Assembly: GCA_045863235.1 (NCBI GenBank)
Contig: BTUM01000037.1
Coordinates: 1-64,000, forward strand
DNA: 64,000 nucleotides
Direction: 5' to 3'
Origin: Candidatus Xenobia bacterium
GTDB taxonomy: Bacteria > Vulcanimicrobiota > Xenobia > Xenobiales > QWHO01
The first letter of the stretch is position 1; the number at the start of each line of letters is the position of its first letter. A program made the translations under genes and the position numbers. This document shows, piece by piece, positions 290-57,316 of this stretch. A model generated the notes under the pieces. That model was not told where the DNA came from, did no database searches, and worked only from the letters and a program-made list of their open reading frames with translations.

Positions 290-964
290 TTAAGGCGAAC
301 GCCCTCCGGCCCACCTCAGACACGGAGACAGACAGCCTGCTGCCGTGTCCCGGCGGCGGTAGCACCGACGCTGGACGCCCGACTGGCTCGGCCACGGGCG
401 GCGACACAGGCTCCACCGGTGGCGCCGTGGCCACCCGTGGACCCGGCGACACAGGTCCTCGCAGGCCGCGACGTCCTCCTCCACCATGGGACGCACGGTA
501 AAACCCTCCGGCAGGGCGCCTTCCAGAGTGCCATGCAACAAAGCCACCGGCTCCTTGACAGAAAAACCCAGCCGGGCGTAAAGCGTGAGCGAGGCCATGT
601 TGAAGCAGTCCTGCATCAGGCGGATGCCCGGGGCACCGCGGCCCTCCTCGATGACCGCCTCCATCAGCAGTCGGCCCACCCCCCGGCCCTGGCCCTCGGG
701 AGCCACCGAAATGGGACCGACGGCAAGAATGGGGTCAACCTTTTGCAGGAAGTTGGAGCCCACCACACGCCCGTCCCGCTCAGCCACGACGGAAAAATTG
801 TGGGGCGAGGCAGCCAGCATGGCGCACACCTGGAGGGCGTAGTCGAGCGAGGGGAAGTCGGGCGGAAAGCCATGCTCGGTTGCGATCGCGCTGAAGGCAC
901 TGTGCAGGATGGCCCCACAGGTCTCGGTGTCTTCCGCACGCATGGAGCGGATCTCGATGCCCAT
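290..964 (-). CDS. GNAT family N-acetyltransferase, probably 3'-truncated or chimeric after about nt 425
   Basis: GNAT motif A (VAPEGQGRGVGRLL) and LYARLGF; a second GNAT repeat begins (VRPMVEEDVAACEDLC) and then degenerates into Arg/Cys/Trp-rich sequence. Confidence 0.8.
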   Translation of the reverse strand: MGIEIRSMRAEDTETCGAILHSAFSAIATEHGFPPDFPSLDYALQVCAMLAASPHNFSVVAERDGRVVGSNFLQKVDPILAVGPISVAPEGQGRGVGRLLMEAVIEEGRGAPGIRLMQDCFNMASLTLYARLGFSVKEPVALLHGTLEGALPEGFTVRPMVEEDVAACEDLCRRVHGWPRRHRWSLCRRPWPSQSGVQRRCYRRRDTAAGCLSPCLRWAGGRSP

Positions 965-1938
965 CAGCCGCGGGCCACCCGGTAGATGAGTCCGCCCAGG
1001 GGTAGCAGGGCGCAGGCGCCCAACAGCGGATGGACGGCCATGGCCGAGCCCACCAGGCGATGGTAGCCATAGCCAGCTGCTCCCAGCAATAGAGCCGTTT
1101 CGCCGTGGGTGCGGGCCACATGGCCGATGCGCCCGTAGATGCGCGCGTCCAGTGCGCTGTCCAGAGCCGGCGCGCGCGCCTCCTGATAGGCGGTGGTGAA
1201 CACATCCAGGTTGTGGCCAGCCCGCTCCGCGTAGTAGCCGAGATCGCGGGCCTTCTTGCCGAACATGCCGCTGGCGTGGAAGGCTCCCTCCTCAAAACGG
1301 GCGTAAGCCAGGTTCTCCATGGGGGCCACCGTCTGGCGGAAAGCCTGCTGGCGCTGGTTGTCGTCCAGTGACGCAAGATTCTGGCGCACCTCGGACGCGG
1401 TCGGCTCGCGCCCGAGCCGGCCCGCCAGCTCGGAGCGGGCCTGGGCGGAAAGGCCAGCCACCGCGCCCACCGTGCACTGGACGACGTGCACCATCTCGTG
1501 CAGCGCCGAAGGGCCGCCCTGGTCGTAGACCTCGAGCCGGGGGAACTTGCCCCAGTTGACCCGGGGGGCGCCACGTCGGAACGAAACGTCCACTCCGTAG
1601 CTTTCGGCCACCAGGGCGAAACGGCTCTGGAAAGCGCGTAGCCGCGTGTCGGTCAGCACCTGACCCTGGCCAAGCTCCTCGAGCAAGCCGTGCAACTCGC
1701 CGCGCAGGTCCTCGAGGGTGGCCCGATCTCCGGCCAGCACCTCGGGCAGCGGCTGGCCGGGCGCTGCCGGCGGCTCCACCGTGGCCCGACGGAGCATGGC
1801 CAGCGGGTCGATCCCGAAGTCGCGCCACACCTTCTGGAAGGTCTCTTTTGGCCCCAGGCTGGGGGCGGGGCGAAAATGCGGTCGCGGCGCCAACCGGGGC
1901 GCAGGCCGATAGTACGCGGAAGCAGCCGCAATCTGCAT
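964..1938 (-). CDS. Hypothetical protein with HEXXH zinc-metallopeptidase-like motif and C-terminal hydrophobic segments
   Basis: SALHEMVHVVQ followed by a downstream E (MENLAY); Pro/Arg-rich leader; stop overlaps the GNAT ATG. Confidence 0.7.
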   Translation of the reverse strand: MQIAAASAYYRPAPRLAPRPHFRPAPSLGPKETFQKVWRDFGIDPLAMLRRATVEPPAAPGQPLPEVLAGDRATLEDLRGELHGLLEELGQGQVLTDTRLRAFQSRFALVAESYGVDVSFRRGAPRVNWGKFPRLEVYDQGGPSALHEMVHVVQCTVGAVAGLSAQARSELAGRLGREPTASEVRQNLASLDDNQRQQAFRQTVAPMENLAYARFEEGAFHASGMFGKKARDLGYYAERAGHNLDVFTTAYQEARAPALDSALDARIYGRIGHVARTHGETALLLGAAGYGYHRLVGSAMAVHPLLGACALLPLGGLIYRVARG

Positions 1939-1947
1939 GGCCTTCGC

Positions 1948-1991
1948 ACTTTATGCCGAGAATGCCGCAAGGTGCGTAACCGGCAAATGAA
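1948..1991 (-). promoter_or_regulatory. Class B direct-repeat promoter TTCAT-N6-GTTAC-N22-TAAAGT
   Basis: Same spacing as the sites upstream of the secA paralogue and the S8 protease. Confidence 0.5.
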
Positions 1992-1994
1992 CAG

Positions 1995-14276: not shown

Positions 14277-15107
14277 ATGAGCGAGCAGATAGACTGCAAA
14301 AGCTATCGCCCGCTGCTGGAGGACTTCGTGGACGGCGAGGTCGAGCCGGGGCAGTTGGGCAACCTGCAAGAGCACCTGAGGGATTGCCCCGAGTGCTTCG
14401 CCCGGGTGGAGTTCATGCGCCGGCTGCAAGGCGTGGTGCGTCAGGCGGTGCCCCCCGAGACCACGCCCGAGCTCTTACGTCGGCGCATCGAGAAGAGCTT
14501 CAAGGTCAATCCCTGGCAACGCCGCATGAGCCAGCCCTGGGTGCGGCCCGCCCTGGCAGCGGCCTGCCTGCTGATCCTGCTGGCAGGGCTCTTCGCCCTC
14601 TTCCCTCGCGAATCCAGGCCCAGCCCCTGGGCTGTGGCCATGGTGAACGACCACACCATGTGCTGGATGATGGGCTGCGGTCAAGCCGACCCGAGCGGCT
14701 TTGAGAAGAAGATCGCGGGATTCCTGGGTACCAAACCGGATGTTCCCACGCTGCAGCAGTCCCAGCGCCTGGACGTAAAACCCTGCCCGGTCAAGGGCTC
14801 GGTGGCCAGTGCCCACGTCTTTTATCTCAGACGGGGCAAGGTGCAGCTCTCGATGTACTTCGCCAAACAGGACGAGTGGACCGGCCAGTTGCCCGACTCG
14901 CCCCAGCAAGCTCGCCTCGACGCCGTCGAGTTCGACGGTAAGACCTATCAGGTGGCCAGCTGGCGGCGTAAGGGGATGGTGACAGGCCTGGTGGCGGATA
15001 TCTCGCGAGAGGACATGAAAGCACTGTCGGGAGCGACGAAGTACGACGCCAAAGGCCAGGCTGTGATTCCGGGAGCCGTGCTGGTGGCTTCGGTCAGCTC
15101 GCCTTAG
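14277..15107 (+). CDS. Transmembrane zinc-binding anti-sigma factor (zf-HC2/ZAS)
   Basis: C...LEDFVDGE...HLRDCPEC, single TM, extracytoplasmic domain with DH motif. Confidence 0.88.
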   Translation: MSEQIDCKSYRPLLEDFVDGEVEPGQLGNLQEHLRDCPECFARVEFMRRLQGVVRQAVPPETTPELLRRRIEKSFKVNPWQRRMSQPWVRPALAAACLLILLAGLFALFPRESRPSPWAVAMVNDHTMCWMMGCGQADPSGFEKKIAGFLGTKPDVPTLQQSQRLDVKPCPVKGSVASAHVFYLRRGKVQLSMYFAKQDEWTGQLPDSPQQARLDAVEFDGKTYQVASWRRKGMVTGLVADISREDMKALSGATKYDAKGQAVIPGAVLVASVSSP

Positions 15108-18100
15108 TCTGCTGCTCGCGGGCCTCGATCAGCATCTGCCTGAAAATCTCGCTGCTGGCCTCATACTGCACGGCCTGGAGCAGGCCTTGATACATGTCGA
15201 AGGCCCGGTGCTGATACTGGATCCAGGGGTCTTTCTGGGCGTAGGCTTCCATCCCGATGCCGTGACGGAGGGCTTCCATGTTCTCCAGGTGGTTCATCCA
15301 GCCCTCATCAGCCACGTCCAGCAAGACTTTGCGCTGGTAGAAGGCCAGGTCTTCCGCCGGCATCCTGGCGGCGGCCGCCTGATAGTGAGCCTCGACCTGG
15401 GGTCGCAACAGCTCCTCGAGCTCTTCTTCAGTCACTTTCTTCTTCTTGCCCAGGTCCACGTCGAAAGGCACGCCAAACTTCTGGCTCAGCTCGGTCAGCG
15501 CTTGCTTGACCGCGTCGGCCTTCATGCTCCCCGGCACCTCGACCACCTCGTCCTCCTGCGAGCCCTTCGCGACCCACTCGCGCTCGGCGTGGCTGTAGAA
15601 GGCCTGGTGGGCCAGCGAGCGCGGCAACCAGTCCAGCACCAGGTCTCCCACGTTGGCTTCACGATTGACGAGCTTGTCGCGGCTCGCGCTAAAGGCCTCG
15701 CGCTGCTTGTTGAGGACTTCTCCATACTTGGTGGTGTCCTTGCGAACCTCGTACCACTTGCCTTCCACCGCCCGCTGCGCTTCGCGCACCATCTCGTCAA
15801 GTCGCTCGTCGCTGACGCCCTTGCCCGGGGGAATGCCCATGGCATCGAAGAACTCGGCCAGCTTCGGTCCTCCGAAGTACTGCAGCAGCTCGTCCTCGAG
15901 CGAGAGCAAGGCCCGACCATAACCTGGCTGGCCCTGGCGAGCGGGGCGCCCTATGAGCTGCAGGTCGATGCGCTCGGACTCGTGGCGCTCGGTCATGATC
16001 AGGTGCAGGCCGCCGGTCTCGAATTCCTCGGTGCGCCCGTCGAAGTGGGCGGACCCTTCGGGGGGTGGGTCGGTCGGCTTGATCCGAATCACGATCCCGG
16101 TCGCGCCGTCCTGGATCGCCTCCCCTTCAGCCAGGATCTGGGTGGGCAGGCTGTCACTGGCCAGCCAGTCTCGGACCTGCTCGGCATCCCGGGGCTTCTC
16201 CACGTCCACCACCACGAACTCGCCCCGCTTGCAGGCAACTTCCGCCTTCATGGCCAGCAGCTTGTAGTTCACCAGGTCGGGCTTGATGTCCACGCCCCGG
16301 CCAGCCATGTTGGTCGCCAGGGTCACCATGCCCGAGCGCCCGGCGTCAGCCAGGATGCGCGCTTCCTCATCGGTGTTGTCCTGCACTCGCTCGGCGTTGA
16401 GCACCTGGTGGTAGATGCCGCGCTTGGCCAGGAGGTGGGACAGGTACTTGTTGGCTGGAATCGAACGTGTGCCCACCAGCACCGGCTTGCCTTCCTTGTA
16501 AAGCTCCTCGATCAGGTCGGCCACGAACTCGAACTTCTCCTGCATGGTGCGGAAGATGACGTCGTGGTCGGTCTTGAGGTCCTTGGGCTTGTTGGTAGGA
16601 ATGGCCACCACGTCCAGCTTGTAGGCCTCGTGGAACTCGGAGGCGGCCGACATGGCGGTGCCGCTCATGCCGGCCAAGTGAGGGTAGCGCCGGAACAGAT
16701 CGGGGTAAGTGATGGAGGCCTGGGTGCGCTGGTAGGGCTGGATGGTGACGCCTTCCTTGGCCTCCAGAGCCTGATGGAGGCCATTGGTGAAGCGCCGCCC
16801 ATCCATGGTGCGACCCTTGAAGACGTCCACGATCTGGACCTGGTCGTTGGCGGCCAGGTAGTCCTGGTCCTTTTCGTAGAGGGCGTTGGCCATCAGGGCG
16901 TTCTGCAGAAAGAAGACCCGGCGCACGTTGTCCAGGCTGTAGAGACTGTAGCTTGGAGCCGCTCCCCGCAGAGAGTCGATCTCGGCCTGAGCCTGCTGCT
17001 TCTCCTCCTCGGTGGTGGCCGTGCGCAGTAGGTTCTGGGCCTGGACGAGCTTCTGAGCCGCCTGAGAGGCCTTGTGGGCCTGATCGAAGGCGCGGCTGGC
17101 AGCCTGCACCTCCTCCATCGGCGTCCCCGGGGGCAACGACCTGAGCTTGAGAGCGGCCTGACCCTTCTTCTCGTCCGCATCCACGGCAGCCAGCATGCAC
17201 TCCACCCGGTCCAGGCCCTCATCGGTGACGTAGGCGTAATGGTCCTTCTGGTTGGTCTTGAAGTCGCGGCCCGGCTCGAGCGACTTGACAAGGATGTCGA
17301 AGATGCGGTGCTCGTCCCCCGCCGCCTCCGACAGCGAGGAGAGGATCAGCGGGGTGCGGGCCTCGTCGATGAGGATCTCGTCCACCTCGTCCACCAGGGC
17401 GAAGTGGGGGGCGCGCTGCACCCTCAGTTCCGGCTCGCGAGCCGATTGGTCACGCAGAAAGTCGAAGCCCAGCGAGTGGTTGGTGATGTAAGTCACGTCG
17501 CAGGCGTAGGCCTTCTTTTTGTCCGGGTTCTCTACCCCTTCGTGCACGCAACCCACCGTCAGGCCCAGGAACTCGAAGGCCGGCTTCATCTGCTCGAAGT
17601 CGCGCTTGACCAGGTAGTCATTGACGGTCACCAGGTGGGCGCCCTTTCCGGTGAGGCCATAAAGGTAGAGTGGCATGATGGCGGTGAGGGTCTTGCCTTC
17701 CCCGGTCTTCATCTCGGAGATGCGGCCCTCGGTCATGGCCAGTCCGCCCTGCACCTGCACGTCGTAGGGGCGCATCTTCAACACGACCTGGGCCGCTTTG
17801 CGGGCCACCGCAAAAGCCTCGACCTTCATCGAGTCGAGGCTCTCGCCATCGGCCAATCGTCTGCGGAACTCCACCGTCTTGCCTTGCACGATTTGACGGG
17901 CGGCCTCCAGGTCGACATCGCCGGTCTGGCCAGCCGCCCGGAGCTCGCTTGCGCGAGCTGCGATCGCAGCGTCGAGCCCAGGCTCGAGATCGTTGACCTT
18001 CTTCTGCTCGGCCTGAACCTGCTTGAGCGGGTCGGTTCCGACCACGCTGAGCAAGCCCAGACCAATGCGCTTGGAGGCTCGAATGGCTCCGGAGAGAATC

Positions 18101-18480
18101 TGGAGGAGCTTGGGACCCTTGGGCAGCTCGACCACGCGCGAGGCCGATGGAGCCTTTTCGGGGACGAGCTCCGTTGGAGGCTGCCTCGGGGTCGCGGGAG
18201 GAGGGGCGGCCGGGCCATCTTCCTCAACAGGCGCCACTGGCTCGTCGAGTTGAGCGAGGGCCGTCGGGACGGACGTCGTCGCCGGGACCGGGGCCACTTC
18301 GGCCAGGTCGGCTGGAAGCTGTTTCTTGTCAGCCTTGCGTTCGTTCCGGGGTCTGGCGGTCTGGGTGAACTGATCGCTGGGAGCGACCGCCTCGGGCTCT
18401 CCCGTGCCCTGCTGCTGACCGGAAGCAGGCTGAGGCAGGCCCGAAACCATCGGGTCGAGCGCGCGCAGCCTCATATCCAT
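15094..18480 (-). CDS. secA: SecA-family translocase ATPase, atypical paralogue with long disordered N-terminus
   Basis: EMKTGEGKT, VTVNDYL, DEVDEILIDEARTPLILS, GLHQALEAKE, GMSGTA, ATNMAGRGVDI, ERHESERID, RQG; no C-terminal Zn finger; start 18480 or 18474. Confidence 0.92.
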   Translation of the reverse strand: MDMRLRALDPMVSGLPQPASGQQQGTGEPEAVAPSDQFTQTARPRNERKADKKQLPADLAEVAPVPATTSVPTALAQLDEPVAPVEEDGPAAPPPATPRQPPTELVPEKAPSASRVVELPKGPKLLQILSGAIRASKRIGLGLLSVVGTDPLKQVQAEQKKVNDLEPGLDAAIAARASELRAAGQTGDVDLEAARQIVQGKTVEFRRRLADGESLDSMKVEAFAVARKAAQVVLKMRPYDVQVQGGLAMTEGRISEMKTGEGKTLTAIMPLYLYGLTGKGAHLVTVNDYLVKRDFEQMKPAFEFLGLTVGCVHEGVENPDKKKAYACDVTYITNHSLGFDFLRDQSAREPELRVQRAPHFALVDEVDEILIDEARTPLILSSLSEAAGDEHRIFDILVKSLEPGRDFKTNQKDHYAYVTDEGLDRVECMLAAVDADEKKGQAALKLRSLPPGTPMEEVQAASRAFDQAHKASQAAQKLVQAQNLLRTATTEEEKQQAQAEIDSLRGAAPSYSLYSLDNVRRVFFLQNALMANALYEKDQDYLAANDQVQIVDVFKGRTMDGRRFTNGLHQALEAKEGVTIQPYQRTQASITYPDLFRRYPHLAGMSGTAMSAASEFHEAYKLDVVAIPTNKPKDLKTDHDVIFRTMQEKFEFVADLIEELYKEGKPVLVGTRSIPANKYLSHLLAKRGIYHQVLNAERVQDNTDEEARILADAGRSGMVTLATNMAGRGVDIKPDLVNYKLLAMKAEVACKRGEFVVVDVEKPRDAEQVRDWLASDSLPTQILAEGEAIQDGATGIVIRIKPTDPPPEGSAHFDGRTEEFETGGLHLIMTERHESERIDLQLIGRPARQGQPGYGRALLSLEDELLQYFGGPKLAEFFDAMGIPPGKGVSDERLDEMVREAQRAVEGKWYEVRKDTTKYGEVLNKQREAFSASRDKLVNREANVGDLVLDWLPRSLAHQAFYSHAEREWVAKGSQEDEVVEVPGSMKADAVKQALTELSQKFGVPFDVDLGKKKKVTEEELEELLRPQVEAHYQAAAARMPAEDLAFYQRKVLLDVADEGWMNHLENMEALRHGIGMEAYAQKDPWIQYQHRAFDMYQGLLQAVQYEASSEIFRQMLIEAREQQTKAS

Positions 18481-18512: not shown

Positions 18513-18556
18513 ATCCTAGCATGACAATCCACTCGGATTTGTAAACAGGATGTTAA
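18513..18556 (-). promoter_or_regulatory. Class B direct-repeat promoter TTAAC-N6-TTTAC-N22-TAGGAT
   Basis: Same architecture and the same TGCTAGGAT extended -10 as 19875-19918. Confidence 0.65.
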
Positions 18557-18582
18557 CGGCCAGACAAGGAAGGGCACGGCCC

Positions 18583-19959: not shown

Positions 19960-21582
19960 GTGCAGCTTTCGGCTTACAATTCCAGTCTGGCGTTCCGGCT
20001 CCCCAGCCCGGCCGCCCGCGAGGAATCCAGTGCTGCCCAGATGGATCTGCCTTTCCTGGCCCTCTCCGGTGGAGACAGCTACAACGGCGTGGTGGAGGGT
20101 ACCAACGAGCGTCAGAACCCCTTCATCGTCGTCCCCAAGGACCTGCTCACCCGGGCCAAGACGCCCAACCAGGTGGTGCAGGACCTCTCCCGCCTCAATG
20201 TCCCGGTCAATGCAGAAATTCCCCTGATCAACGGCTATACGGTGGTGATGAACGAGGACGAGCGCCGGCGCGTCGAGCAGGCCGGCTATCAGGTCATGCC
20301 CGACCTGTCGGACAAGTTCCTCTTGCCCAGCCCCTGGGAGCGCAAGCCCGAAGAGAACGTCGAGACCATCGCCACCGAGCCGGCCACCCCTACCACCCCC
20401 CGGGCAACCCTGACCGAGCCGCGCTACGCCTCTCCCCTGACCCAGCAGTTCACCGGTCGCGGCGTTGGGATCGCCATCATCGACACGGGCATCTATCCCC
20501 ACCCCGACTTCAACTTCCCCCACAGCCGGATCGTGGCTTTCCAGGACTTCGTCAATGGCAGCACGCTCGCCTACGACGACAACGGCCACGGTACCCACAC
20601 GGCCGGCGATGCGGCTGGCAACGGCTTTCTGTCGGAAGGCCTCTATCGGGGGGCCGCTCCCGAGGCCAACCTGGTGGGCATCAAGGTGCTGGACAAGAAT
20701 GGCAACGGCACCACCTCCAACATCCTTAAGGGGATCAACTGGGCGGTCGAGAACAAGGAGCAGTACAACATCCGGGTCATCAACCTCTCGCTCGGCTCGA
20801 GCCAGCGTTGGGCGCATCGCCGTCAGGACCCCATCCAGCAGGCGGTGGAGAAGGCGGTGGACGCGGGCATCGTGGTGGTGGTCTCGGCTGGCAACGAAGG
20901 CCCCTATCCCGGCACGATCAGCGCGCCGGGCGACAACCCCCGCGTGATCACGGTGGGCGCCCTGGACGACCGCAACACCCCCGACCCCTCCGACGACCGC
21001 ATTCCGTCCTTCTCCAGCCGGGGCAAGTCGGACACCATGAAGCCCGACCTGGTGGCTCCCGGCGAGGGGATCATCGGGCCCAACGCTCCCGGCACCATCA
21101 GCGAAGCCACCGCCCGCAAGTACGGGGCCGTCCAGAAGACCCTGTCCTGGCTCGACAGGATGCGCGACGAGGAGCTGGTGCACGTGCCCGAGGATACGCT
21201 GCGGCTGATCGGCCTGAATCCGAGCTCGATCCAGCGTTTCAAGAACTCCCCCCAGACCGCCCGCTCGGAGATCAACCGGCTGATCGAGACCACCAACCGC
21301 CTGCCCATGGTGTCGAGCAACTACCTGGGCATGCCGGGCACCTCCATGGCCGCTCCCATCGTGGCCGGGGTGGTGGCCCAGGTGCTGGAGGCAAACCCGC
21401 ACCTTTCCCCTGACGAGGTCAAGCAGGTGCTGCGCCAGAGCGCCACCCAGCTTCCCGGCTACGGTCGCGAGGCCCAGGGCTCGGGCGCGGTCAACCCGGA
21501 CCGAGCCATCGAGCTCGCTCTGCAGAAGCTGGATGAGGGCGACCGGAACGGCCAGTTGCACCTGCCCCTGGAGCAACTCTGA
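19960..21582 (+). CDS. S8 subtilisin-family serine protease (AprX-like), no Sec signal peptide
   Basis: Catalytic triad IIDTGI, HGTHTAG, GTSMAAP; oxyanion SAGNEG; ~70-aa insertion before the catalytic Ser. Confidence 0.92.
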   Translation: MQLSAYNSSLAFRLPSPAAREESSAAQMDLPFLALSGGDSYNGVVEGTNERQNPFIVVPKDLLTRAKTPNQVVQDLSRLNVPVNAEIPLINGYTVVMNEDERRRVEQAGYQVMPDLSDKFLLPSPWERKPEENVETIATEPATPTTPRATLTEPRYASPLTQQFTGRGVGIAIIDTGIYPHPDFNFPHSRIVAFQDFVNGSTLAYDDNGHGTHTAGDAAGNGFLSEGLYRGAAPEANLVGIKVLDKNGNGTTSNILKGINWAVENKEQYNIRVINLSLGSSQRWAHRRQDPIQQAVEKAVDAGIVVVVSAGNEGPYPGTISAPGDNPRVITVGALDDRNTPDPSDDRIPSFSSRGKSDTMKPDLVAPGEGIIGPNAPGTISEATARKYGAVQKTLSWLDRMRDEELVHVPEDTLRLIGLNPSSIQRFKNSPQTARSEINRLIETTNRLPMVSSNYLGMPGTSMAAPIVAGVVAQVLEANPHLSPDEVKQVLRQSATQLPGYGREAQGSGAVNPDRAIELALQKLDEGDRNGQLHLPLEQL

Positions 21583-22544
21583 TGAAGGTGGCCGCCGCTC
21601 CCGCTCCGTTACCCCGCCTGGCCGAGCACCGGCCCCAGCGCGCCGCCAGCCTGGGACTGCCGGAGGATACCCTCTTTCTGAGCAAGCTCCCGCCCATCGA
21701 GGGCGACTTCCCCCCACCCCCACCCGACCTCAAGCGCCCGGTCTTGATCGTGCACGGCTTCAACGGCGCCGCCCTGGACTTTTTCAACATGCGCAACTAC
21801 CTGGCGTCCAACCCCAGAAACAAGCTCGGCGCCACTTTTCACCCCGGTAAGGAGGACGAGTTCCGGGCTTCCCTGCGCGAGAAGCCGGACGGTCGCATCC
21901 ATACCATCAGCTTCTCCAAGCCTTACCTGAGCTATCGCGAGCTGCAGGCCGAGCTGACCGCCTGTCTGAAGGTTCTCAACGAGGAGACAGGCGGCGAGGT
22001 GGACGTGATCACCCACTCGATGGGAGGGCTGGCCACCCGGGCCCACCTCGACCAGGGACATGACGGCATCGATAAGCTGATCATGATCGCGCCTCCCAAC
22101 CGGGGTAGCCTGGAAGCAGACCTGGCCCTGGCCGCCGACCGGCTCAACCTTTACAGCCACTACATTCCCGAGGCCAAAGATGCGCTGCGCGACCTGACCC
22201 TGGACGAAGAGTTTCTGGGCAAGCAGAACAATCCGTATCTGAACGGATTGAACCAGCGCTGGGCCGAGCAGAGCGCCAAAGTGCAGGCCACCATCATCGC
22301 CGGGTTGGGGATTCCCACTCCCGACTGGAACTGGAAGCTTTTTTCGCAGGGCGACGGCATGGTGACGGCCAGCAGCACCTACATGCCAGGAGCCCGGTTC
22401 GCCGTCACCGACGTGGAGCATCCAGCCGGAATCGAGCGTGAGGGCGACAGCGGCAACCGGCTGTTTACCTTCAAGTACAACCACGGCAGCCTGGTCAGCG
22501 ACCCGACGATCCAGCAGTTCGTGGGGCAGATCCTGGGAAGCTAA
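21582..22544 (+). CDS. Alpha/beta-hydrolase (lipase/esterase, PGAP1-like)
   Basis: VHGF, THSMGG nucleophile elbow, APPNRGS, GDGMV, NH; stop/start overlap with the protease. Confidence 0.88.
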   Translation: MKVAAAPAPLPRLAEHRPQRAASLGLPEDTLFLSKLPPIEGDFPPPPPDLKRPVLIVHGFNGAALDFFNMRNYLASNPRNKLGATFHPGKEDEFRASLREKPDGRIHTISFSKPYLSYRELQAELTACLKVLNEETGGEVDVITHSMGGLATRAHLDQGHDGIDKLIMIAPPNRGSLEADLALAADRLNLYSHYIPEAKDALRDLTLDEEFLGKQNNPYLNGLNQRWAEQSAKVQATIIAGLGIPTPDWNWKLFSQGDGMVTASSTYMPGARFAVTDVEHPAGIEREGDSGNRLFTFKYNHGSLVSDPTIQQFVGQILGS

Positions 22545-33300: not shown

Positions 33301-35561
33301 GTGGGGCTCTGGACGGTCGTGGTGGTGCGCTCGGTTCCGCCTCCCTCGGAGGTCTCCGACACGATGCGCTCGCCGGTCGGCAATTCAGTGGTCTCGCGCC
33401 GGGTCACATTCCGGTTCTCCCCCGAGCGCGGCTCGGGCGTGCCGGGTCGATTCTCGTTCTGATTTTGATTCGGGTTGCGATTGGGCGGCGCGGGCGCGGC
33501 CGCGCGCGGCTCGGTTTCGCCGGGCTTGCCTTCTACGGTCGTGGTGATGCGCTCGCCGGTGGCCGTGGTCACGGTCGTGGTGGTGCGCTCGTTGCCTCCC
33601 TCGACTCGGGCCGTCTCGCTGGTGATGGTCTCGCCGGTAGGCAGCTCGGTGGTCTCGCGGCGGGTGACGTTTTCGGCCCGGGGCGCTTCGGTGCGAGCAG
33701 GCTCGGGCGCGGGAGGCCGATTCTGGTTGTTTTGATTGGGGTTGGGCAAGGTGGCCCGAGGCTCGGTCTCGCCGGGCTTTCCTTCCACGGTGGTGGTGAT
33801 GCGCTCGCCAGTGGCCGTGGTGATGGTGGTGGTGGTGCGCTCGTTGCCCCCTTCGACCCGGGCCGTCTCGCTGGTGATGGTTTCGCCGGTAGGCAGCTCG
33901 GTGGTCTCGCGGCGGGTGACGTTCTCGGCCCGGGGCGCTTCGGTGCGGGCAGGCTCGGGCGCGGGAGGCCGATTCTGGTTGTTTTGATTGGGGTTGGGCA
34001 AGGTGGCCCGAGGCTCGGTCTCGCCGGGCTTTCCTTCCACGGTGGTGGTGATGCGCTCGCCGGTGGCCGTGGTGATGGTGGTGGTGGTGCGCTCGTTGCC
34101 CCCCTCGCCCCGGGAGGTCTCGCTGGTGATGGTCTCGCCCGTGGGCAGCTCGGTCGTCTCACGGCGGGTGACGTTGCGGTTCTCCTCGACCCGCGCAGCC
34201 GGCTGCGGCTCGGGGGTCCGGGCAGTCTGCTGCTGTTGCGGCAGTGGAGCCGGGCGGGCCTCTTCCGAAGGCTTGCCGACGGTCTGGGTGGTGGTGACGA
34301 TCTTCTCGCCGGTCGGCAGGGTGATCGTCTCGGTGCGCGTGTTGCCTTTGGCTTCTTCCGCTTTGGGGGGCGGCGCAGGAGCTTCGACCTTCTCGACCCG
34401 GGTGGTGGTCGTCGTCGTGCGCGTCTCGCCGGTGGGCGACTCGACCGTGGTGGTGGTCCTGGTCTCCTCGGGCTTTTTCTCGTCGGCCCGGGGAGCGAGC
34501 AAGGCTGGCCTCGGACTCTCGGGCGGCTTGCTCTCGGTTGTGGTGGTGACCTTCTCACCGGTGGCCAGAGTGACCGACTCGGTGCGGTTGGCCGGCTTCT
34601 TCTCGCCTTCTGCTTTAGGCTGCTCGGGTTTCTGCTCGTCCTTGCGCTCGACCCGGGTCTCGGTCCTGGTGCTCGTTTCCCCGTTGGCGTCCGTAACCGT
34701 CTCGGTGGTCTCGGTCACGACACGCTCTTCCTCCGGCGCGGCCGCCTCGCGACGGTTCTCAGCCGTCTTGGCACGAGCGGTCTTCTCCTCGCTGGAGCTG
34801 CTGGTGGCCGAGGCCGCCTTCTCCGTCTGCGGCTTCGTCGGGGCCACCCCGGGTCGGACCGTTTCCGTGGAGCTGGCCTCCGACCGGATCACCCTGCCCT
34901 TCTTGTCCTTCTCGGCCGTGGTGACTTCCACGCTGGGCAATTGGCCCGGTTTCTCAACGATGGCCACGGTGACCTCGGAAGTCTTGCCATCGGGACCCTT
35001 GACCTCGACCTTGGTGGCCGTCTGGGTGGTGGTGGTGCCATCGGCTTCCACGACCTGCGTCTTGCTCTGGGTCGTGGCCGCCCCTCCGGGCGCGTCGGTG
35101 GAGCCGGTCTTCACTTCCTCCTTGACCATCTGGCGTCCATCGTCGGTGGTGACTTCCGTGCGCGAGCTGGAGGAACCGTCACTGTTCTTGGTGGTTTCCG
35201 AGCGGGCGCTCTGGACCGTGGTCTGGCCGGTCATCAGAGACTTCGTGCTCTCGATCCTGACCGAAGCCGGTGGCAGCTTGTCCTTGTCCTTCTCCTTGGG
35301 CGCCTTCGTGGGATCGATCCCGAACATGCGAAGGACCGTATCCTCTTTCTTCTTGGCCTCTTTCTGCTCTTTCTTGGACAGCGGCTTTTCGGTTTTGCTG
35401 CCCGGGAAGGCTCCCTCGAGCGAGGTGATGGAGGTCTTGATGACGTCCTGCAGCTCGTTGAGCGACTTCTCGACGCTACCCCCCTTGCTCGACGTCGACG
35501 AGGTCGTCGTCGAGGTCACGGTGGTGGTCGTGTTCTTGATGTCCTTCGAAGGCTGCGCCAA
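30309..35561 (-). CDS. Giant low-complexity repeat protein with C-terminal degenerate HD-GYP domain
   Basis: HPIYG, HHERWDGDGYPDGLAG, IPLASRIIAVAD, GTQFDP; HD dyad replaced (LIDIG, LRDVGK); TTG start after GGAGG. Confidence 0.9.
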   Translation of the reverse strand: MAQPSKDIKNTTTTVTSTTTSSTSSKGGSVEKSLNELQDVIKTSITSLEGAFPGSKTEKPLSKKEQKEAKKKEDTVLRMFGIDPTKAPKEKDKDKLPPASVRIESTKSLMTGQTTVQSARSETTKNSDGSSSSRTEVTTDDGRQMVKEEVKTGSTDAPGGAATTQSKTQVVEADGTTTTQTATKVEVKGPDGKTSEVTVAIVEKPGQLPSVEVTTAEKDKKGRVIRSEASSTETVRPGVAPTKPQTEKAASATSSSSEEKTARAKTAENRREAAAPEEERVVTETTETVTDANGETSTRTETRVERKDEQKPEQPKAEGEKKPANRTESVTLATGEKVTTTTESKPPESPRPALLAPRADEKKPEETRTTTTVESPTGETRTTTTTTRVEKVEAPAPPPKAEEAKGNTRTETITLPTGEKIVTTTQTVGKPSEEARPAPLPQQQQTARTPEPQPAARVEENRNVTRRETTELPTGETITSETSRGEGGNERTTTTITTATGERITTTVEGKPGETEPRATLPNPNQNNQNRPPAPEPARTEAPRAENVTRRETTELPTGETITSETARVEGGNERTTTTITTATGERITTTVEGKPGETEPRATLPNPNQNNQNRPPAPEPARTEAPRAENVTRRETTELPTGETITSETARVEGGNERTTTTVTTATGERITTTVEGKPGETEPRAAAPAPPNRNPNQNQNENRPGTPEPRSGENRNVTRRETTELPTGERIVSETSEGGGTERTTTTVQSPTGERMTTTVETTGRTGEERPAPAQPPANRGDERPRPTEAPASNNQPETRAARSEAEAPRGEQTRATEPARPAEGQRNEPARPAEAPRNEPARAEGEPARPTEGQRNEPARSEGQRNEVARQAEAPRNEPARSEAEPVRASEGPRSEGQPQRSEQVRQAEAPRNEPPAPAAETRRENSGEPRRVEEASRAADAQRSDAREVEPARAEARAEARSEARGEARVEVRGENREARSETRGESHASEPSRVDAPRSEARAEARAENRSEQSGEPSRPTEGRRGATAEEPARAAAPPPSGQETERRASVTGEPARANTAPRNEGSAAEPARRGEDAGRSTSVAVQATSETSRTDPQRVSAVETARTGESAAPGAPRGSEGSPRSEGPGRSVSPSGTSAAFAGERPRTAPGTSLPLGAPAGPASEAYRPAAAEVRPAMTAPVGPPEGPPAVAAAQRRSTTLPTAPPAPSAPEPETARASTAPTAREPLAEAPATPTLPPAPVRPNLAGPLAPQAIQAASQPAAAAVERELASERTQAPAEAGTSAIQLGLRPTPQRVTTQASSTSSDVREAAAASSEDMALDSQQDGILPISPIERRREPTQDLRQETLTQWRAAERNERQAFGSEDARFDKHSEPTTGAANRLAPTLAGTVRQASAQGAQANQQSQQQESGFGSGDQGQGGDDRGADRHSAHGLGRGPAQTQNSTNTALAAIMAAMQPEGAEEAEAQETHRAATLGASEMDSVQLESVANRHAASAVTSLLKKANKEKELGDLQDLDEDAALHSLGVMLKMGGQSTERSEKVMQHAMAMADELGINDFRTRKQIRDGAMLIDIGQVGIALGGASDEKIEEMADFLKEQGPLNLRALHASTILRDVGKIQVPEEILAKPPDELTSAELEELKKHPIYGEEIMNQIGSLKHLGPIIRSHHERWDGDGYPDGLAGRDIPLASRIIAVADHFEDLLAGGPDGEPFSVENALQTLRDGSGTQFDPVLIDAFLRVMERT
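33250..34180 (-). repeat. Intragenic 252-bp (84-aa) tandem repeat, about 3 near-identical copies plus a degenerate one
   Basis: NVTRRETTELPTGETITSET...ERTTTTITTATGERITTTVEGKPGETEPR repeated; identical DNA at 33736 and 33988; ends approximate. Confidence 0.9.
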
Positions 35562-35696
35562 AGGGGAATCCTCCCAAAACGTCGTTCCGATAGCGTACCA
35601 CTCGATTGCCAAGCGAGCGTGAAGAGGGTGGTAAACTTTGTTAAAAGTTTGCTGCCAGGTTGTTAAATTCTCTGGACGGGGCGTAGAAGCCTTTCG

Positions 35697-37538: not shown

Positions 37539-38813
37539 TTACGGGCCTGGTTGAGCAGGCTGCGGCCGGCGCTTGGGCACCCGGACGCCACCCACGATGA
37601 TCCGGCCCTCGGTGTCAAAGACCTGGGGGGTGCGGGGAGGTCCCTGAGCCAGCTTCTGGGACCACTCGGCCGGCGTCTGCAAGCCATAGACATAGCGACC
37701 GTAGGAGCTGGTGTAGATCAGGCCGTCTTCCCCGAAGATCGGCTTGGCGAAGGTGTTGCGATCCTGGAAGGTCCACTCATGGATTCCCTGATCGCTCAGG
37801 CACATCAAAGCTCCGCCACGGATTCCCATGATCACGCCGCCGTCCGGCCGGGCAGTCAGGTGCAAGGTGGGCCCCAACTGCTGGCTCCACAGCGGACGGC
37901 CCTCGCGGTTGAAGGCCATGACGGTATCGCGGTCCTCTCCCCCACTCGCATAGACGTTGCCCTGGCGGTCGATGGCGGGGGTATCGTAATGCTCGAAGCC
38001 CCGCTTGTTGCCCAGGCTCTGGCTCCAGCGAACCTGCCCGGTGACTCCGTCCAGGACGTACAGCTTGTCGGCTCCAAAACTGACGGTCCCGTCCGGACCG
38101 ACCGCCACGTCCGTCTTGATGGGAGAGAACCCGTTCCCGCCGCCTTTCAGCTCCGAGAAGCGCCACTTTTCCTTGCCATCGGGCGCGAAGGCATAGACTT
38201 CGCCGTCCTTGGTGGCCATGTGCACGGTCCCGTCCGGGCCCACCACCGGCGGACGGCTCCAGGCCGATTCCAGCGGCTTCTTCCAGAGCTCCTCTCCCTC
38301 CGGCGAAACCGCGTAGAGCGTATCGTGATCGCAGATGTAACAGTTGCCCTCGGGGCCTGAAGCGGTGCCGGTGGAGAGCGATTCGGCCGGCGAGACCTTC
38401 TTGCTCCAGAGCAGCTCCCCGCTCGAACTGAAGGCCTGGAGCTCGCTGGTGCGAGAGACATAGACCCCGCCGTCCAGGCGGGGGGAAGGGTCGCCGCCGT
38501 AACTGACCCCCTCCTCGCCCCGAGCGGCCATCTCGCCCGACGTGTTGAGGCGCTGGAAGAACGGAGACCCACCCACCAGGGTGAGGCCGGCTCTGGTCCA
38601 CACCATTTCGGTGCCGTGGCTGCCTGCATCGTGCTTCCAGATGGAAGGATTGTCCACCGTAGGCACACGACCAGACGCCAGTGCGCGGACTGCGCCCGTC
38701 AGGTCCAGCCCCGCGGAGGTGGGCTCGAAACGGTCCTGTGGCTCTTCTGACCCCGAGGCAGCCAGAGGCCGGGTCAGGGGGGGCAAGCCGATCCTGGAGC
38801 TGGAGACGAGCAT
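37539..38813 (-). CDS. PQQ-like beta-propeller repeat protein with non-Sec leader
   Basis: Repeats PxVGPDGTV...YAFAPDGKEKW; C-terminal IIVGGVRVPKR. Confidence 0.85.
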   Translation of the reverse strand: MLVSSSRIGLPPLTRPLAASGSEEPQDRFEPTSAGLDLTGAVRALASGRVPTVDNPSIWKHDAGSHGTEMVWTRAGLTLVGGSPFFQRLNTSGEMAARGEEGVSYGGDPSPRLDGGVYVSRTSELQAFSSSGELLWSKKVSPAESLSTGTASGPEGNCYICDHDTLYAVSPEGEELWKKPLESAWSRPPVVGPDGTVHMATKDGEVYAFAPDGKEKWRFSELKGGGNGFSPIKTDVAVGPDGTVSFGADKLYVLDGVTGQVRWSQSLGNKRGFEHYDTPAIDRQGNVYASGGEDRDTVMAFNREGRPLWSQQLGPTLHLTARPDGGVIMGIRGGALMCLSDQGIHEWTFQDRNTFAKPIFGEDGLIYTSSYGRYVYGLQTPAEWSQKLAQGPPRTPQVFDTEGRIIVGGVRVPKRRPQPAQPGP

Positions 38814-38854: not shown

Positions 38855-38886
38855 AGTCTAAGAGGGTGACTTGAAAAAGGTCTGAA
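38855..38886 (-). promoter_or_regulatory. Class A direct-repeat promoter TTCAG-N6-TTCAA-N10-TAGACT
   Basis: Identical spacing to the other class A sites. Confidence 0.65.
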
Positions 38887-38909
38887 GTCCTGGAAGTCGG
38901 GCCCAGATG

Positions 38910-43001: not shown

Positions 43002-43342
43002 TCTACCACCTGACTTCCGACCCGGCCTGCCTGGAGCCGGAGAGCCTCAAGAGCGAGGGCTTCGTGCACTGCTCGACGGCCGAGCAACTCCTGGCCACGG
43101 CCGAGCGTTACTTCAGCCACCTCGAGGAGGTGCACGTGCTCGAGCTCGACCCGGCCAAACTTGGCGCAGAGCTGCGCTATGAGCAACCTGCCGGACCGCT
43201 CTCGCCCAACGAGCTCTTTCCCCACCTCTACGGGCCGATCGAGGCGCGGGCCGTGGTGAGAGTCTGCCGTCTGATCCGACAGGACGGCTGCTTTACCTGG
43301 GCGGACGGGGGTGTCCCTCGGGAGGAGGGGGCCGCCAGCTGA
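42998..43342 (+). CDS. DUF952 domain protein
   Basis: IYHL, SLKSEGFVHCST, FPHLYGPI; GTGA overlap. Confidence 0.88.
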   Translation: MIYHLTSDPACLEPESLKSEGFVHCSTAEQLLATAERYFSHLEEVHVLELDPAKLGAELRYEQPAGPLSPNELFPHLYGPIEARAVVRVCRLIRQDGCFTWADGGVPREEGAAS

Positions 43343-45035
43343 TGCTTTCGAATAGCATGCTGGCCTCGGGCTTCAAGGTCTCGGGCGATACATCCGGTCC
43401 AACCTGAGCGATCACCACGGCGTAGATCACCGGTGGGCCGGATGGCTCCACGCCTGGAAAGATCATCAGAGCGCCGATGGCGTCCGGGCTCTCGAGCTGA
43501 TAGGTGTGCTGCTCGGGTGATACGGCGCGGACTGTCTGCCAGTTTTCGGCAAGGTCCTTCAAGATGGCGGCCGCGAAGTCGGGCATGTTCGCGTTGCGCT
43601 CGGCCAGAATGAGGATTCGTCGCTCCACACCGTCCTTCTCAACGCGAAGAAGCAGGTCGAGGTGGCTCTCATCCCGTCGCTCGTGGTCCACCTCGTAGTC
43701 GCGGGGAACGACCAGCTTGAGGGCAAAGCCTCGAAAATCGAGGCTCCGCACCGAGCCGGACAGAGCGGGAAAGCGGGGAGGCTCGGGCGGTGCACTCACC
43801 GCGGCGGGCTCGGGCGCGGCAAGCAGGCGGGGGCGAGCGCGTGGGTAGGTCACGGGAGCGGGCGTGGCCCGCAGAATCGGCCGCGGCCTGGGTCGAGGAC
43901 GGGCCACCGGCTGAAGCGGCGGAGGGGGCGGCGGGGCTGCCGGGGGCGGCGGAGCGGGAGGCACTGGCAGGTCGACCGGCTCCACCTCGGGCTGGGCCGG
44001 TGGGAGCATTGCCACGGTGGAGGGTGTGCTGCTCGATACGGGAGCGACCATGGCGCTGGGAGCCACCGCCGGCGCCGTGGTCATTCCCCGCCCGATCCAC
44101 AGGCCAACCAGCAGGGTGCCCAGCAAGGCCATGGCCACCAGAGCCGGCTGCGCGCGCGAGGGGGTCGGCGCCGGGTCGGTCCGGACCACCGGGGCACCCG
44201 CAGTGGTGACGGAGAACGAGCGACGCCCGGCCAGCCAGTCCGCCAACGCCTGGCGCATCTCGCGGGCGCTGGCAAAGCGTTCGTGAGGAAGAATGGCGCT
44301 GGCCCGGTCGACGATGGCTACCAGGGCGGGATCCTGTCCGGGGTCGGTGACCCCCAGTGAGGTCACCTCCAGTGGCACCGGCTCGCGGTTGGTCAGGAGG
44401 TGGTGCATGGTCACCCCCAGAGCGTAGAGGTCCGAGCGCGGCTCGGAGCGCCCCTGAATCTGCTCCAGGGGCGAATAGCCCAGCGTGCCAACGGCCGTCT
44501 GGGTGCGCGTCCCGCCCACGACGCGGGCCAGCCCGAAATCTACCAGCATGATCTTGCCCGTCTTGAACTCGCGGATCAGATTGGCCGGCTTGATGTCGCG
44601 GTGGACCACGGGAGGATCGAGCTCGTGCAGGTAGATCAGGGCGTCGAGCACTTGCAGGATGTCTCTCACCAGCACTTCGGGAGCAAAGGGTTGGCCGGTG
44701 AGTTGCATGGAGTCCTCGAGTTGCTGCTGCAAGTTGGCCCCGTGGATGTAATCCATCACGATGTAGCAGAGCCTGTTCTCGCGGAAAAAGTCGCGCACAG
44801 CCGGGATAGCCGGGTGCTTGAGGCGGGCGAGCAAGGCCTTCTCTTCCTCGAACTTGCGTTGGATCAGCTCGGCGTCGTCGGTGCCGAGCAACTCCTCGAG
44901 CATCTCCTTGACGGCGCAGGCAGCGCCGTCAAGATGGCCGTCGCGGGCCTCATAAACCGCGCCCATCCCGCCGCTGGTGAGCACCCGGACGATGGTATAG
45001 CGATCACGGAGGAGCTGACCGGGTACCAGCGGCAT
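43293..45035 (-). CDS. Membrane Hanks-type Ser/Thr protein kinase
   Basis: GGMGAVY, AVKE, HRDIKPAN, DFGLA, GTLGY; TM, Pro-rich linker, extracytoplasmic domain. Confidence 0.93.
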   Translation of the reverse strand: MPLVPGQLLRDRYTIVRVLTSGGMGAVYEARDGHLDGAACAVKEMLEELLGTDDAELIQRKFEEEKALLARLKHPAIPAVRDFFRENRLCYIVMDYIHGANLQQQLEDSMQLTGQPFAPEVLVRDILQVLDALIYLHELDPPVVHRDIKPANLIREFKTGKIMLVDFGLARVVGGTRTQTAVGTLGYSPLEQIQGRSEPRSDLYALGVTMHHLLTNREPVPLEVTSLGVTDPGQDPALVAIVDRASAILPHERFASAREMRQALADWLAGRRSFSVTTAGAPVVRTDPAPTPSRAQPALVAMALLGTLLVGLWIGRGMTTAPAVAPSAMVAPVSSSTPSTVAMLPPAQPEVEPVDLPVPPAPPPPAAPPPPPPLQPVARPRPRPRPILRATPAPVTYPRARPRLLAAPEPAAVSAPPEPPRFPALSGSVRSLDFRGFALKLVVPRDYEVDHERRDESHLDLLLRVEKDGVERRILILAERNANMPDFAAAILKDLAENWQTVRAVSPEQHTYQLESPDAIGALMIFPGVEPSGPPVIYAVVIAQVGPDVSPETLKPEASMLFESISWRPPPPEGHPRPPR

Positions 45036-47778: not shown

Positions 47779-47779
47779 G

Positions 47780-54224: not shown

Positions 54225-54274
54225 GGCAGCACCTCCCGGGTGCTGAAGGATTCTCAAGGGAGGCCGAATTCCCT

Positions 54275-56113: not shown

Positions 56114-56167
56114 GCGCCTGAGCTTACCACGCCTCAGAAGGGCTCGGAACTGATCCCGGTCAGCCGC

Positions 56168-57316
56168 TTACTGTTTCTTTTTGGACTCGGCCAGAGCCCG
56201 GCCCCAATCTTCCACGATACGCCCGCGAATTTTGGGGGCGCTCTCGTCATAGGGAATCCCGCTGAGTGTCGCGGTTTCCTGGCCGATACGCCTGTGCAGT
56301 TCCTCAGTCAGGGCGGTCACCCCCGCCTTCTGCTCCATAGCCCGGTAGGGGGCGACCTCGATGGGATCGCCGATACGCAGCTGGGCCAGGTCGCGGTGCA
56401 TCCAGGCCTGGCCCAGGGCCCAGGTGGAGACGGCACCGCTCAGGCCGGCAAGTCCCGCGATCAGAGCCTGAGAGTCATCCAGAAGCGCGGCCGCACCTCC
56501 GGCTGCGATGGCTCCCGCCAGGGCCCCTCCGGCTCCGCCCTTGAGGGTGGCAAAGTAGTTGGGGAAGGGATCGTTGGCATTCTCGATGGGCACCAGTTTG
56601 TTCCCGAGCTGGCCTCCGGCCACGGCTCCGGTGAGAGCTCCGCCCAGGGCGGCCACGGCCACCCGGGCTCCCGGTCCGCCCACCGCTCCGGCCACCAGGC
56701 CGGCCACGGCCACGCTGGCGGTGGCCAGGGCGGTGGCCAGCTTCTCGCCCGGATACTCCCGGTCGTTCTTCTTGTAGAAAACCGCGATGGGCACGATGTT
56801 CTCAGCTCCGCCCTTGATGGCGAAATAGGCCGCGCCCTTCTTGATGGGCAACAGGGTGCCCAGTTCCTCGGTGATGGCCCCCTCGGGGAAGATGCAGACG
56901 CCCTTGCCCTCCTTGAGCAGGTCAATGGCGTGATTCACGGTCGTGGGGCTGGGGTTCTCGCGGTGCACCGGAAAGGCTCCCCCCCAGGTCATCACGCGTC
57001 CCCGCAAGCCGTCAAAGACGTAGACGTTGGCAACATACCGCATGTCTCGATCGCTCAAGAGCGCCACCAGAGGCGGATCAAAAAAGCTGGGGTGGCCGGA
57101 GGCGTAGACCTGGGGCCCGGAGTGGAGCATCTTCTCCTTGTTCTGCACTTCGAGCCGGTAGCGCCCGTTGGACAAAATCACGTTGAGAGGCTTGGTGAGC
57201 CAGTTGTGCTTGCGCGTTGACAGCCCGTCCTCGGGGCCGGTGTAGTCGGGGACGTAGTGTCCGAAACTCCTGGGCTTCTCGGGCACGGCAGCGGCATGGG
57301 TAGGCAGAATACGCAT
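56168..57316 (-). CDS. PlsC-like lysophospholipid acyltransferase with Gly-zipper insertion
   Basis: HPSFFD, FPVHR, IFPEG, IVPI; probably leaderless from ATG 57316. Confidence 0.87.
   Translation of the reverse strand: MRILPTHAAAVPEKPRSFGHYVPDYTGPEDGLSTRKHNWLTKPLNVILSNGRYRLEVQNKEKMLHSGPQVYASGHPSFFDPPLVALLSDRDMRYVANVYVFDGLRGRVMTWGGAFPVHRENPSPTTVNHAIDLLKEGKGVCIFPEGAITEELGTLLPIKKGAAYFAIKGGAENIVPIAVFYKKNDREYPGEKLATALATASVAVAGLVAGAVGGPGARVAVAALGGALTGAVAGGQLGNKLVPIENANDPFPNYFATLKGGAGGALAGAIAAGGAAALLDDSQALIAGLAGLSGAVSTWALGQAWMHRDLAQLRIGDPIEVAPYRAMEQKAGVTALTEELHRRIGQETATLSGIPYDESAPKIRGRIVEDWGRALAESKKKQ

Follow-up and report, generated by a model that had tools for sequence, protein, structure and literature searches.

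The window analysed here is the whole stretch of 64,000 nucleotides, positions 1-64000 of contig C37, in the 8.36-Mb genome of a Candidatus Xenobia bacterium; the genome is 97.6% complete, and no 16S gene is assembled in it. The initial annotation had singled out six proteins of the window as sharing an N-terminal leader that is not a Sec signal, each behind a repeat promoter, and had proposed them as cargo of an export system. This leader, and the secretion machine to which it probably belongs, are the subject of this report. All six proteins lie where they had been placed, and their starts are confirmed (HEXXH protein 1938, SecA paralogue 18480, S8 protease 19960, lipase 21582, PQQ propeller 38813 and acyltransferase 57316). 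Five of the six have a promoter site of class B or C, and the lipase is served through the S8 operon: its gene has no separate promoter site, and there is a one-base overlap with the S8 stop. The absence of such promoters from housekeeping genes is also borne out, since the ArgRS, PheS, PheT, RtcB and ABC genes of the window score below 14 bits, our cut-off for a promoter site, for both classes. The six genes and their promoters are as follows (promoter classes and leader scores are described below).

964..1938, minus strand: HEXXH protein (HEMVH at residue 147); residues 1-31 are the leader, leader score 0.98
1948..1993, minus strand: weak class C promoter of the HEXXH gene, 14.3 bits (borderline), 9 nt 5' of the ATG
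15094..18480, minus strand: SecA paralogue, 1128 aa, with leader, box DQF at residues 35-37, GEGKT and DEVD motifs intact
18513..18558, minus strand: class C promoter of the SecA paralogue, 31.0 bits
19873..19918, plus strand: class C promoter of the S8-lipase pair, 25.6 bits
19960..21582, plus strand: S8 (AprX-like) protease, with leader, box DSY; catalytic D, H and S motifs present
21582..22544, plus strand: alpha/beta-hydrolase (lipase-like), second gene of the S8 pair, with leader
37539-38813, minus strand: PQQ-type beta-propeller, typical leader, box DRFEPT
38855-38890, minus strand: class B promoter of the PQQ gene, 25.2 bits
56168-57316, minus strand: acyltransferase, leader by the classifier, no match to the box pattern
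57324-57359, minus strand: class B promoter of the acyltransferase, 23.9 bits, 7 nt 5' of the second ATG

De novo searches of upstream DNA gave three promoter classes, whose letters are assigned here and need not match the class letters of the initial annotation. Class B reads TTTCAG-N5-TTTCAG-N10-TAnnCT, and class C is a GTTAACA-like repeat followed by N20/21 and TAnnnT; both are 11-bp direct repeats 5' of a sigma70-type -10 box. Class A (AGG[AG]-N16/17-CGAA), which from its consensus we take to be of the SigH or extracytoplasmic function type, stands upstream of ordinary genes, many of them with Sec signals. It is the commonest promoter, with about 580 genes genome-wide, mostly leaderless mRNAs of housekeeping genes (in the window at 46356, 51818 and 54251, all on the minus strand); canonical sigma70 promoters are few in the genome. 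Sites above 14 bits precede 365 genes for class B and 290 for class C, or 642 of 6763 genes for either, and the false-hit rate deep within coding DNA is 0.8 per Mb (B) and 4.5 per Mb (C). In 177 of 242 leaderless class B genes the start codon lies 6-7 nt past the -10 box. Direct repeats of 11 bp are usually read by winged-helix-type activators; among the OmpR-family and sigma genes of the genome, none has a strong B or C site. A search seeded with the sigma-28 promoter found just 4 sites and converged on class B.

Genes were called with a self-trained hexamer model (6980 called, 6763 kept). Because its starts are unreliable at low-complexity leaders, the starts used in the main tests were set from promoter positions, independently of the peptide. 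The test sets hold 321 class B, 227 class C, 480 class A (housekeeping controls) and 99 sigma70-type proteins; the 548 class B and C proteins (B/C hereafter) are those whose starts are fixed by the two direct-repeat classes.

The leader is real and genome-wide. It consists of M-x-[IV], an acid-poor spacer of Pro, Ser, Ala and Thr, and a box, D-x-[VFY]-x-[LP]-[SG], that peaks at residues 27-31; in the consensus of 154 boxes the third position is V (60%), F (25%) or Y (14%), followed after one residue by L or P and then S or G. The box pattern was derived from class B, and class C serves as a held-out test. M-x-[ILV] begins 192 class B, 105 class C, 87 class A and 20 sigma70-type proteins, and the box occurs in 111, 65, 47 and 7 of them, respectively (shuffled 21.6, 17.2, 40.8 and 6.8). 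M-x-[IV] and box occur together in 66 of 321 class B and 35 of 227 class C proteins (shuffled 2.5 and 1.8), in 7 of 480 class A and in 0 of 99 sigma70-type proteins; both ends of the tag are thus present in 101 of 548 B/C proteins, as opposed to about 4 after shuffling and 7 of the 480 housekeeping controls. Hydrophobic starts of the Sec or transmembrane kind number 10 in B, 14 in C, 146 in A and 24 in the sigma70-type set, that is, 24 of 548 B/C versus 146 of 480 class A proteins. The box falls at residues 27-31 in 66 of 517 proteins, compared with 9 of 444 in class A, and is scarce at residues 7-21. The association also holds when tested in reverse, independently of the promoters: a B or C promoter precedes 97 of 149 genes with a strict leader, versus 545 of 6614 others, and for class C alone, which was not used to define the box, the counts are 35 of 277 versus 52 of 6121. 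Both the enrichment of the leader over shuffled sequences and its link to the promoters, which the initial annotation had proposed to check, are therefore found across the genome.

The motif itself differs from the one first described. M-x-[ILV] with P-x-[DE]-x-[FL] is indeed enriched (21 of 321 class B and 18 of 227 class C proteins, shuffled 1.7 and 1.1, versus 3 of 480 class A; P-x-[DE]-x-[FL] alone in 30 B and 23 C, shuffled 8.4 and 5.5, and in 12 of 480 A), but it is a minor form, and the core is D-x-[VFY]-x-[LP]-[SG]: the proline that had been given as the fixed start of the motif stands at -2 in only 31% of the 154 boxes. The S8 protease, which had been said to lack the full motif, has the box DSY, whereas the acyltransferase, of which the same was said, is without a match. 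The HEXXH protein and the lipase had been offered as examples; neither matches the box pattern, and the PKETF of the former is absent from 5 of its 6 nearest homologues. All six proteins nevertheless score 0.79-0.98 in a leader classifier, two of them (PQQ and acyltransferase) having been in its training set. This classifier is a logistic model trained on B versus A in this genome only, with a cross-validated area under the curve of 0.92; it passes 83% of class B and 164 of 227 held-out class C proteins. By this measure roughly 400 proteins of the promoter-defined set are tagged, a figure that leaves downstream operon members uncounted.

One could assume that the tag is a by-product, picked out by eye, of disordered N-terminal linkers and of the codon needs of leaderless mRNAs. 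Disordered starts rich in Pro, Ser and Ala are common in high-GC genomes, and 338 of 551 B/C starts are leaderless. However, M-x-[IV] begins 28 of 342 leaderless class A proteins as opposed to 186 of 336 leaderless B/C proteins, and it is found in 72 of 212 B/C proteins led by a Shine-Dalgarno sequence. The box is enriched in leaderless and Shine-Dalgarno-led genes alike, and it is encoded by mixed synonymous codons, which marks it as a protein-level signal. It is tied to a position, withstands composition-matched shuffling as well as disorder-matched controls (123 of 366 versus 7 of 101), and is kept in orthologues whose spacer has diverged. The by-product explanation is highly improbable and already largely refuted.

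The retention of the box is seen in the SecA paralogue, one of three SecA copies in the genome. In its orthologues from several genera a box of the form D/E-x-hydrophobic is kept at a similar place while the spacer has diverged. The class C site is kept in 8 orthologue loci (30.5-31 bits in three genomes of the same genus, 16.5-24 in five others), and 8 canonical SecA loci start without a leader. The leader-bearing SecA was found in large-genome relatives and in none of the small f3/g3 genomes. Homologues of the S8 protease, the close ones carrying the names Candidatus Eremiobacterota, Candidatus Xenobia or Vulcanimicrobiota (part of the basis for the taxonomy), score above 0.5 in 98 of 120 cases; the box occurs in 73 (shuffled 10.3) and a hydrophobic start in none. 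Among 21 homologues of the HEXXH protein, 15 score as leaders and 6 have the box, a count not over the shuffle maximum. Such homologue counts overstate the evidence, since the relatives are not independent by kinship. Of 120 paralogues that do not belong to the regulons, 10 begin with a hydrophobic stretch; four of the 10 clearly have a Sec signal where their tagged counterpart, at 42-49% identity, has the leader.

The 548 B/C proteins fall into 378 clusters, 311 of them singletons. A family scan covered 183 of the 548, taken from the densest 20-kb stretches and not at random; at a Pfam threshold of 1e-6, 124 of the 183 are without a family and 59 have one. The 59 include 16 peptidases, 12 beta-propellers, 3 peptidoglycan enzymes, 2 endonuclease I proteins, 2 glycosidases, 2 alpha/beta-hydrolases, 2 acyltransferases and one protein with repeats shared with HrpK1/NolX. 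The amidases and the lytic transglycosylase would point to a bacterial envelope as the site of action. Proteins rich in Cys, Met and Gln and in Pro and Thr, with repeats that match HrpK1/NolX, are found on contigs C4, C9 and C47, and the C4 copy (L169:11-2080, minus strand) has a class C site. The HrpK1/NolX match covers the repeat module only, occurs in 8 of 41 genomes and is the sole lead to a translocon. No class I chaperone was identified in a CesT search that was run without a positive control.

An alternative explanation is that the tag is an intracellular label for localisation or turnover, such as a protease degron or a compartment or developmental address, that both regulators switch on together with a machine. 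SecA, acyltransferase, HD-GYP proteins, a thioredoxin-reductase-like enzyme and FKBP belong to families that are normally cytoplasmic, and co-regulation by itself is no demonstration of export. If this were the case, then paralogues would not be expected to swap the leader for a Sec signal, as the four pairs above do. Endonuclease I, amidase_3, SLT, clostripain and PQQ propellers are families usually found outside the cytoplasm, and here their members carry the tag without a Sec signal. Leader scores are also reached by FlgM, FliE, FliK and the pilin-like protein, and not by FliG, FliJ, FliN, FlhA and FlhB. We consider an intracellular label unlikely.

The apparatus had been noted as absent from the window, and a search of the genome for type III, flagellar or Tad machinery had been suggested. 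A flagellar-type apparatus is encoded on two other contigs, under one of the same promoters.

Contig C27: exporter cluster with flgB, flgC, fliE, fliF, two fliG, fliH, fliI, fliJ, a lytic transglycosylase gene and fliK
Contig C27, exporter cluster continued: a 271-aa flgE-like gene, fliM, two fliN, fliO, fliP, two fliQ, fliR, flhB and flhA
Contig C27: three identical 81-aa genes, 3' of the exporter genes
Contig C74: second locus with a fliK-like gene, a FlhB-C-like gene, flgF, flgG and flgJ

The gate, ATPase complex, MS and C rings and rod are encoded (FliPQR, FlhAB, FliHIJ, FliF, FliGMN, FlgBCFG, FliE, FlgJ and FliK). Flagellin/FlgL, the MotA stator, FlgM and FlgI (P ring) were not found in the 97.6% complete genome, with positive search controls. 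Three secretin matches lie in a type II cluster, in a type IV pilus cluster and in a lone short protein. The machine is conserved across this little-studied phylum, genomes of 2.4 Mb included: of 41 near relatives, 39 have FliP and 8 have flagellin, a second fliP being present in seven of those 8, and phylum-wide (121 genomes, one unpublished) FliP is found in 114 and flagellin, over the cut-off, in 39. The 81-aa family, which has no Pfam match, occurs in 35 of the 41 genomes; its language-model neighbours are clusters with 23-24% HrpA_pilin members (score 0.90-0.91). In genus g4 (e.g., G007, L212-L213) the exporter and many class B sites are present, yet in none of its 6 genomes was an 81-aa pilin-like gene found.

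FlhA scores 814.6 with TIGR01398, over the cut-off of 772.1, and 616.5 with the SctV model TIGR01399, under that of 692.25. The FlhA copies of the flagellin-less system form one clade (support 100/99; L011 was too short and was left out of the tree). This clade joins SctV in a FastTree phylogeny of 96 rows (97) and in a quick 24-row mixture tree (95.8), but it falls among flagellar FlhA, apart from SctV, in a careful 49-row mixture tree (97/98), and constraining the 24-row tree to the flagellar placement gives a higher likelihood (+4.55, approximately unbiased test p-AU 0.615). The trees disagree, and the better-sampled one favours nesting among flagellar FlhA over a sister relationship to SctV. 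A more eroded exporter cluster of the same FlhA clade, with an aspartyl protease and MTHFR inside, is found in family f14 (L255:1639-15466, genome G124). In the genome under study, five extra proteins with an FlhA cytoplasmic domain (contigs C80, C3, C1, C106 and C107; L002, L003, L008-L010), two as fusions with FliG-N repeats and one as a fusion with an FlhB-C piece, could possibly be additional docking platforms for a large cargo set, and a second FliF-like protein (C9_5642-7162, contig C9) has a class C promoter. Contigs from RNA libraries of four studies match the leader genes of the window and the exporter at high identity, and the pilin-like contig reaches a depth of 146 in one run; such contigs cannot show transcription, starts or rank. 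By its defining markers the machine is neither a motile flagellum nor a canonical injectisome, and it appears to work like a type III secretion system.

Several observations link the tag to this machine. Class C sites stand at all three of its identifiable transcription units, namely at flgB (26.8 bits), at the short flgE-like gene (23.9) and at the fliK-like/flgF/flgG/flgJ operon (25), and three pilin-like copies have a B or C site, of class B at one copy (23.9 bits); the background is 642 of 6763 genes. In the loci of relatives the class C site is conserved at flgB in 5 of 5 and at the flgE-like gene in 6 of 6. The classifier, whose training included no FlgM, accepts 28 of 28 FlgM proteins from flagellated relatives versus 1 of 17 products of the genes directly downstream (28 of 30 loci, leaving out L246 from the unpublished genome G122 and L248, a partial match; at 11 of the 28 no downstream open reading frame was called). 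Among machine parts of other genera, 19 of 30 exported and 8 of 44 cytosolic proteins pass, and FlgB and FlgC fail. In Salmonella FlgD, at least 19 and at best 24-30 residues are needed between two export signals (Bryant et al. 2022, PMC8983047). The distance from residue 3 to the box peak at 27-31 fits this spacing of about 24-30 residues. A predicted complex of FlhA-C, FlhB-C and a single typical leader was uninformative (score 0.02) and plays no part in this argument. Taken together, these data indicate that about 400 proteins most likely carry, in the tag, a type III export signal, and that this signal is probably read by the flagellin-less, motor-less flagellar-type secretion machine of this genome.

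Alternatively, the tag may direct export by a different route (Tad, type IV pili, type II, a contractile injection system or other), with the flagellar-type machine merely co-regulated. Contractile injection systems use N-terminal loading signals, which counts for this possibility, and type II and type IV pilus clusters are present in the genome. Prey killing by Myxococcus involves a Tad pilus and a needleless T3SS* (PMC12075869). Against such a route, the secretin operons of the type II and type IV pilus systems are without a B or C site on their structural genes, and the type III operons themselves stand under class C in 5-6 genomes. The type II and type IV pilus routes also need Sec or Tat first. 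The VipB sheath of type VI secretion was not found in the genome (control positive), nor was the contractile tube PF06841, for which no control matched; Tad and the type IV and type VII secretion systems were not searched. We regard another route as quite unlikely.

Returning to export by the flagellar-type machine, a number of findings weigh against it. Eight of the 59 proteins with a family look cytosolic or membrane-bound (L25, DAHP synthase, MFS, OPT, MMPL, MGDG synthase and two PilZ proteins). The box occurs in only 176 of 548 B/C proteins, and the classifier, which also rewards general disorder, passes 14% of the class A controls. Of the promoter-led proteins in loci fetched from other genera, just 6 of 15 with class C and 3 of 6 with class B pass it; rod subunits and Lys-rich SecA leaders, the latter scoring 0.26-0.43, account for several of those that fail. 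FlgM is a disordered protein, and because the classifier partly measures disorder, the FlgM result is support and not proof; the box pattern is present in only 6 of the 28 FlgM proteins. The idea that the box equals a FlgM motif, D-x-[IV]-x-[IL]-S, was rejected, the strict form D-x-[IVLF]-x-[IL]-S occurring in 0 of 28 FlgM, and the second motif is not of the FLTLL type of FlgD. No outer-membrane ring was identified among the genes searched for, and no secretin is linked to the exporter. Finally, this genome has 72 strict class B sites (control 1), and the genomes of families f1, f2 and f4 have 5-71; in family f3 they number 0-4 and in f14 0-2, though both keep the exporter. With class B nearly absent from these families, the B regulon is an expansion in large genomes and not a fixed part of the system.

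In the window, 10 of 48 called genes exceed 14 bits for B/C, including four further orphans or doubtful members, which are listed here with their sites.

23662-23697, plus strand: class B promoter 5' of the 638-aa protein gene
23710-25626, plus strand: 638-aa Q/A/G-rich protein, no known family, leader score 0.86
26887-28755, minus strand: 622-aa Q/A/G-rich protein, no known family, leader score 0.91
28810-28845, minus strand: class B promoter of the 622-aa protein, from the promoter scan
30309-35561, minus strand: 1750-aa Thr-repeat HD-GYP protein, doubtful member, leader score 0.65
35625-35670, minus strand: weak class C site of the HD-GYP gene, from the promoter scan
57379-57414, plus strand: divergent class B promoter, 5' of the 149-aa protein gene
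57446-57895, plus strand: 149-aa protein, no known family, under the divergent class B promoter

The two long Q/A/G-rich class B proteins are candidates for extension or translocation parts; the 622-aa protein has no usable Atlas match. About 1600 residues of the HD-GYP protein are Thr-rich 84-aa repeats, and it is without a signal peptide. A kinase at 43293-45035 has a class C site of 17.0 bits but no leader (score 0.29). Pfam and NCBIfam searches placed the HEXXH protein in no family. Its AlphaFold2 model, from 22 sequences, has a predicted local distance difference test (pLDDT) score of 83 overall and below 50 at residues 1-31, this being the only protein modelled for disorder; its single-sequence structure model is poor. 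Fold searches with the model returned nothing clear (best Foldseek E 0.29; best Z 4.8, to M32 carboxypeptidase).

The process could run as follows. Two activators of the winged-helix type would switch on machine and cargo together; the box would dock at the export gate, and the N-terminal residue would open it, as in early flagellar subunits; the unfolded cargo would then leave by way of the rod and an Hrp-like pilus. Its destination is the least secure part of this scheme, and contact delivery to a neighbouring bacterial cell seems about as probable as release into the medium or into the cell's own envelope. Of the interpretation given in the initial annotation, the co-regulated cargo set without Sec signals and with type III-like N-termini holds, whereas our results do not establish that the cargo enters another cell or that the lifestyle is predatory or parasitic. 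A predatory lifestyle has been proposed for marine relatives (PMC9259500). More tentatively, and with rather less than even confidence, we suggest that a duplicated flagellar basal body in Eremiobacterota became a second, separately evolved injectisome with an Hrp-like pilus. Neighbouring bacterial cells would then be the targets, with some 400 tagged proteins (proteases, cell-wall hydrolases, nucleases, lipid-remodelling enzymes and a SecA motor) being delivered into them by Xenobia, and the tag would be consistent enough for the full effector list to be read off the sequence.

The tag and the two promoter boxes mark about 6% of the proteome. If export by this machine is true, then the type III cargo set would be very large and would offer a ready-made library for testing how an export gate reads its substrates; a flagellum-derived machine would gain a function, the predation proposed for the marine relatives would become testable, and the system may record a second route from flagellum to protein-delivery device. 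Type III signals have been noted as too variable for sequence definition (PMC6140923). The tag and its two regulons appear to be new; no description of them or of the exporter was found in the literature searched, whose coverage leaves out most subscription papers.

Among known systems, the leader resembles the Salmonella FlgD signal (PMC8983047) in its small non-polar residue at the extreme N-terminus, its second short motif some 24-30 residues on, its sequence-free spacer and its lack of a chaperone. It differs in that the second motif is D-x-[VFY]-x-[LP]-[SG] and not FLTLL, and in being carried by hundreds of enzymes and orphans instead of a few structural subunits; docking is a proposal here. 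The machine is like the non-flagellar type III or Hrp injectisome (PMC3459982) in its core export genes, in the absence of filament and motor, in a small multi-copy subunit that may be HrpA-like and in a large co-regulated set of candidate cargo with unfolded N-termini. Unlike the injectisome, it keeps flgB, flgC and fliE, which are flagellum-specific markers (Abby and Rocha 2012, PMC3459982), its FlhA passes the FlhA and not the SctV cut-off, it has no linked secretin, and no clear translocon was found. The flagellar basal bodies of Buchnera (PMC8109811) likewise keep basal body and export machinery and are suspected of a role as protein exporter; no secreted proteins are identified for them there, whereas here candidates are defined by tag and promoter. 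The nearest published precedent is Lysobacter enzymogenes OH11 (PMC7688988), a predatory bacterium in which a flagellar gate and FliI, without a functional flagellin, are linked to the secretion of protease and glucanase. There, three proteins of one strain are FliI-dependent; here a separate, conserved paralogous system extends through a phylum, beside true flagella in some genomes. It includes a family of pilin-like genes, and about 400 proteins bear a recognisable tag.

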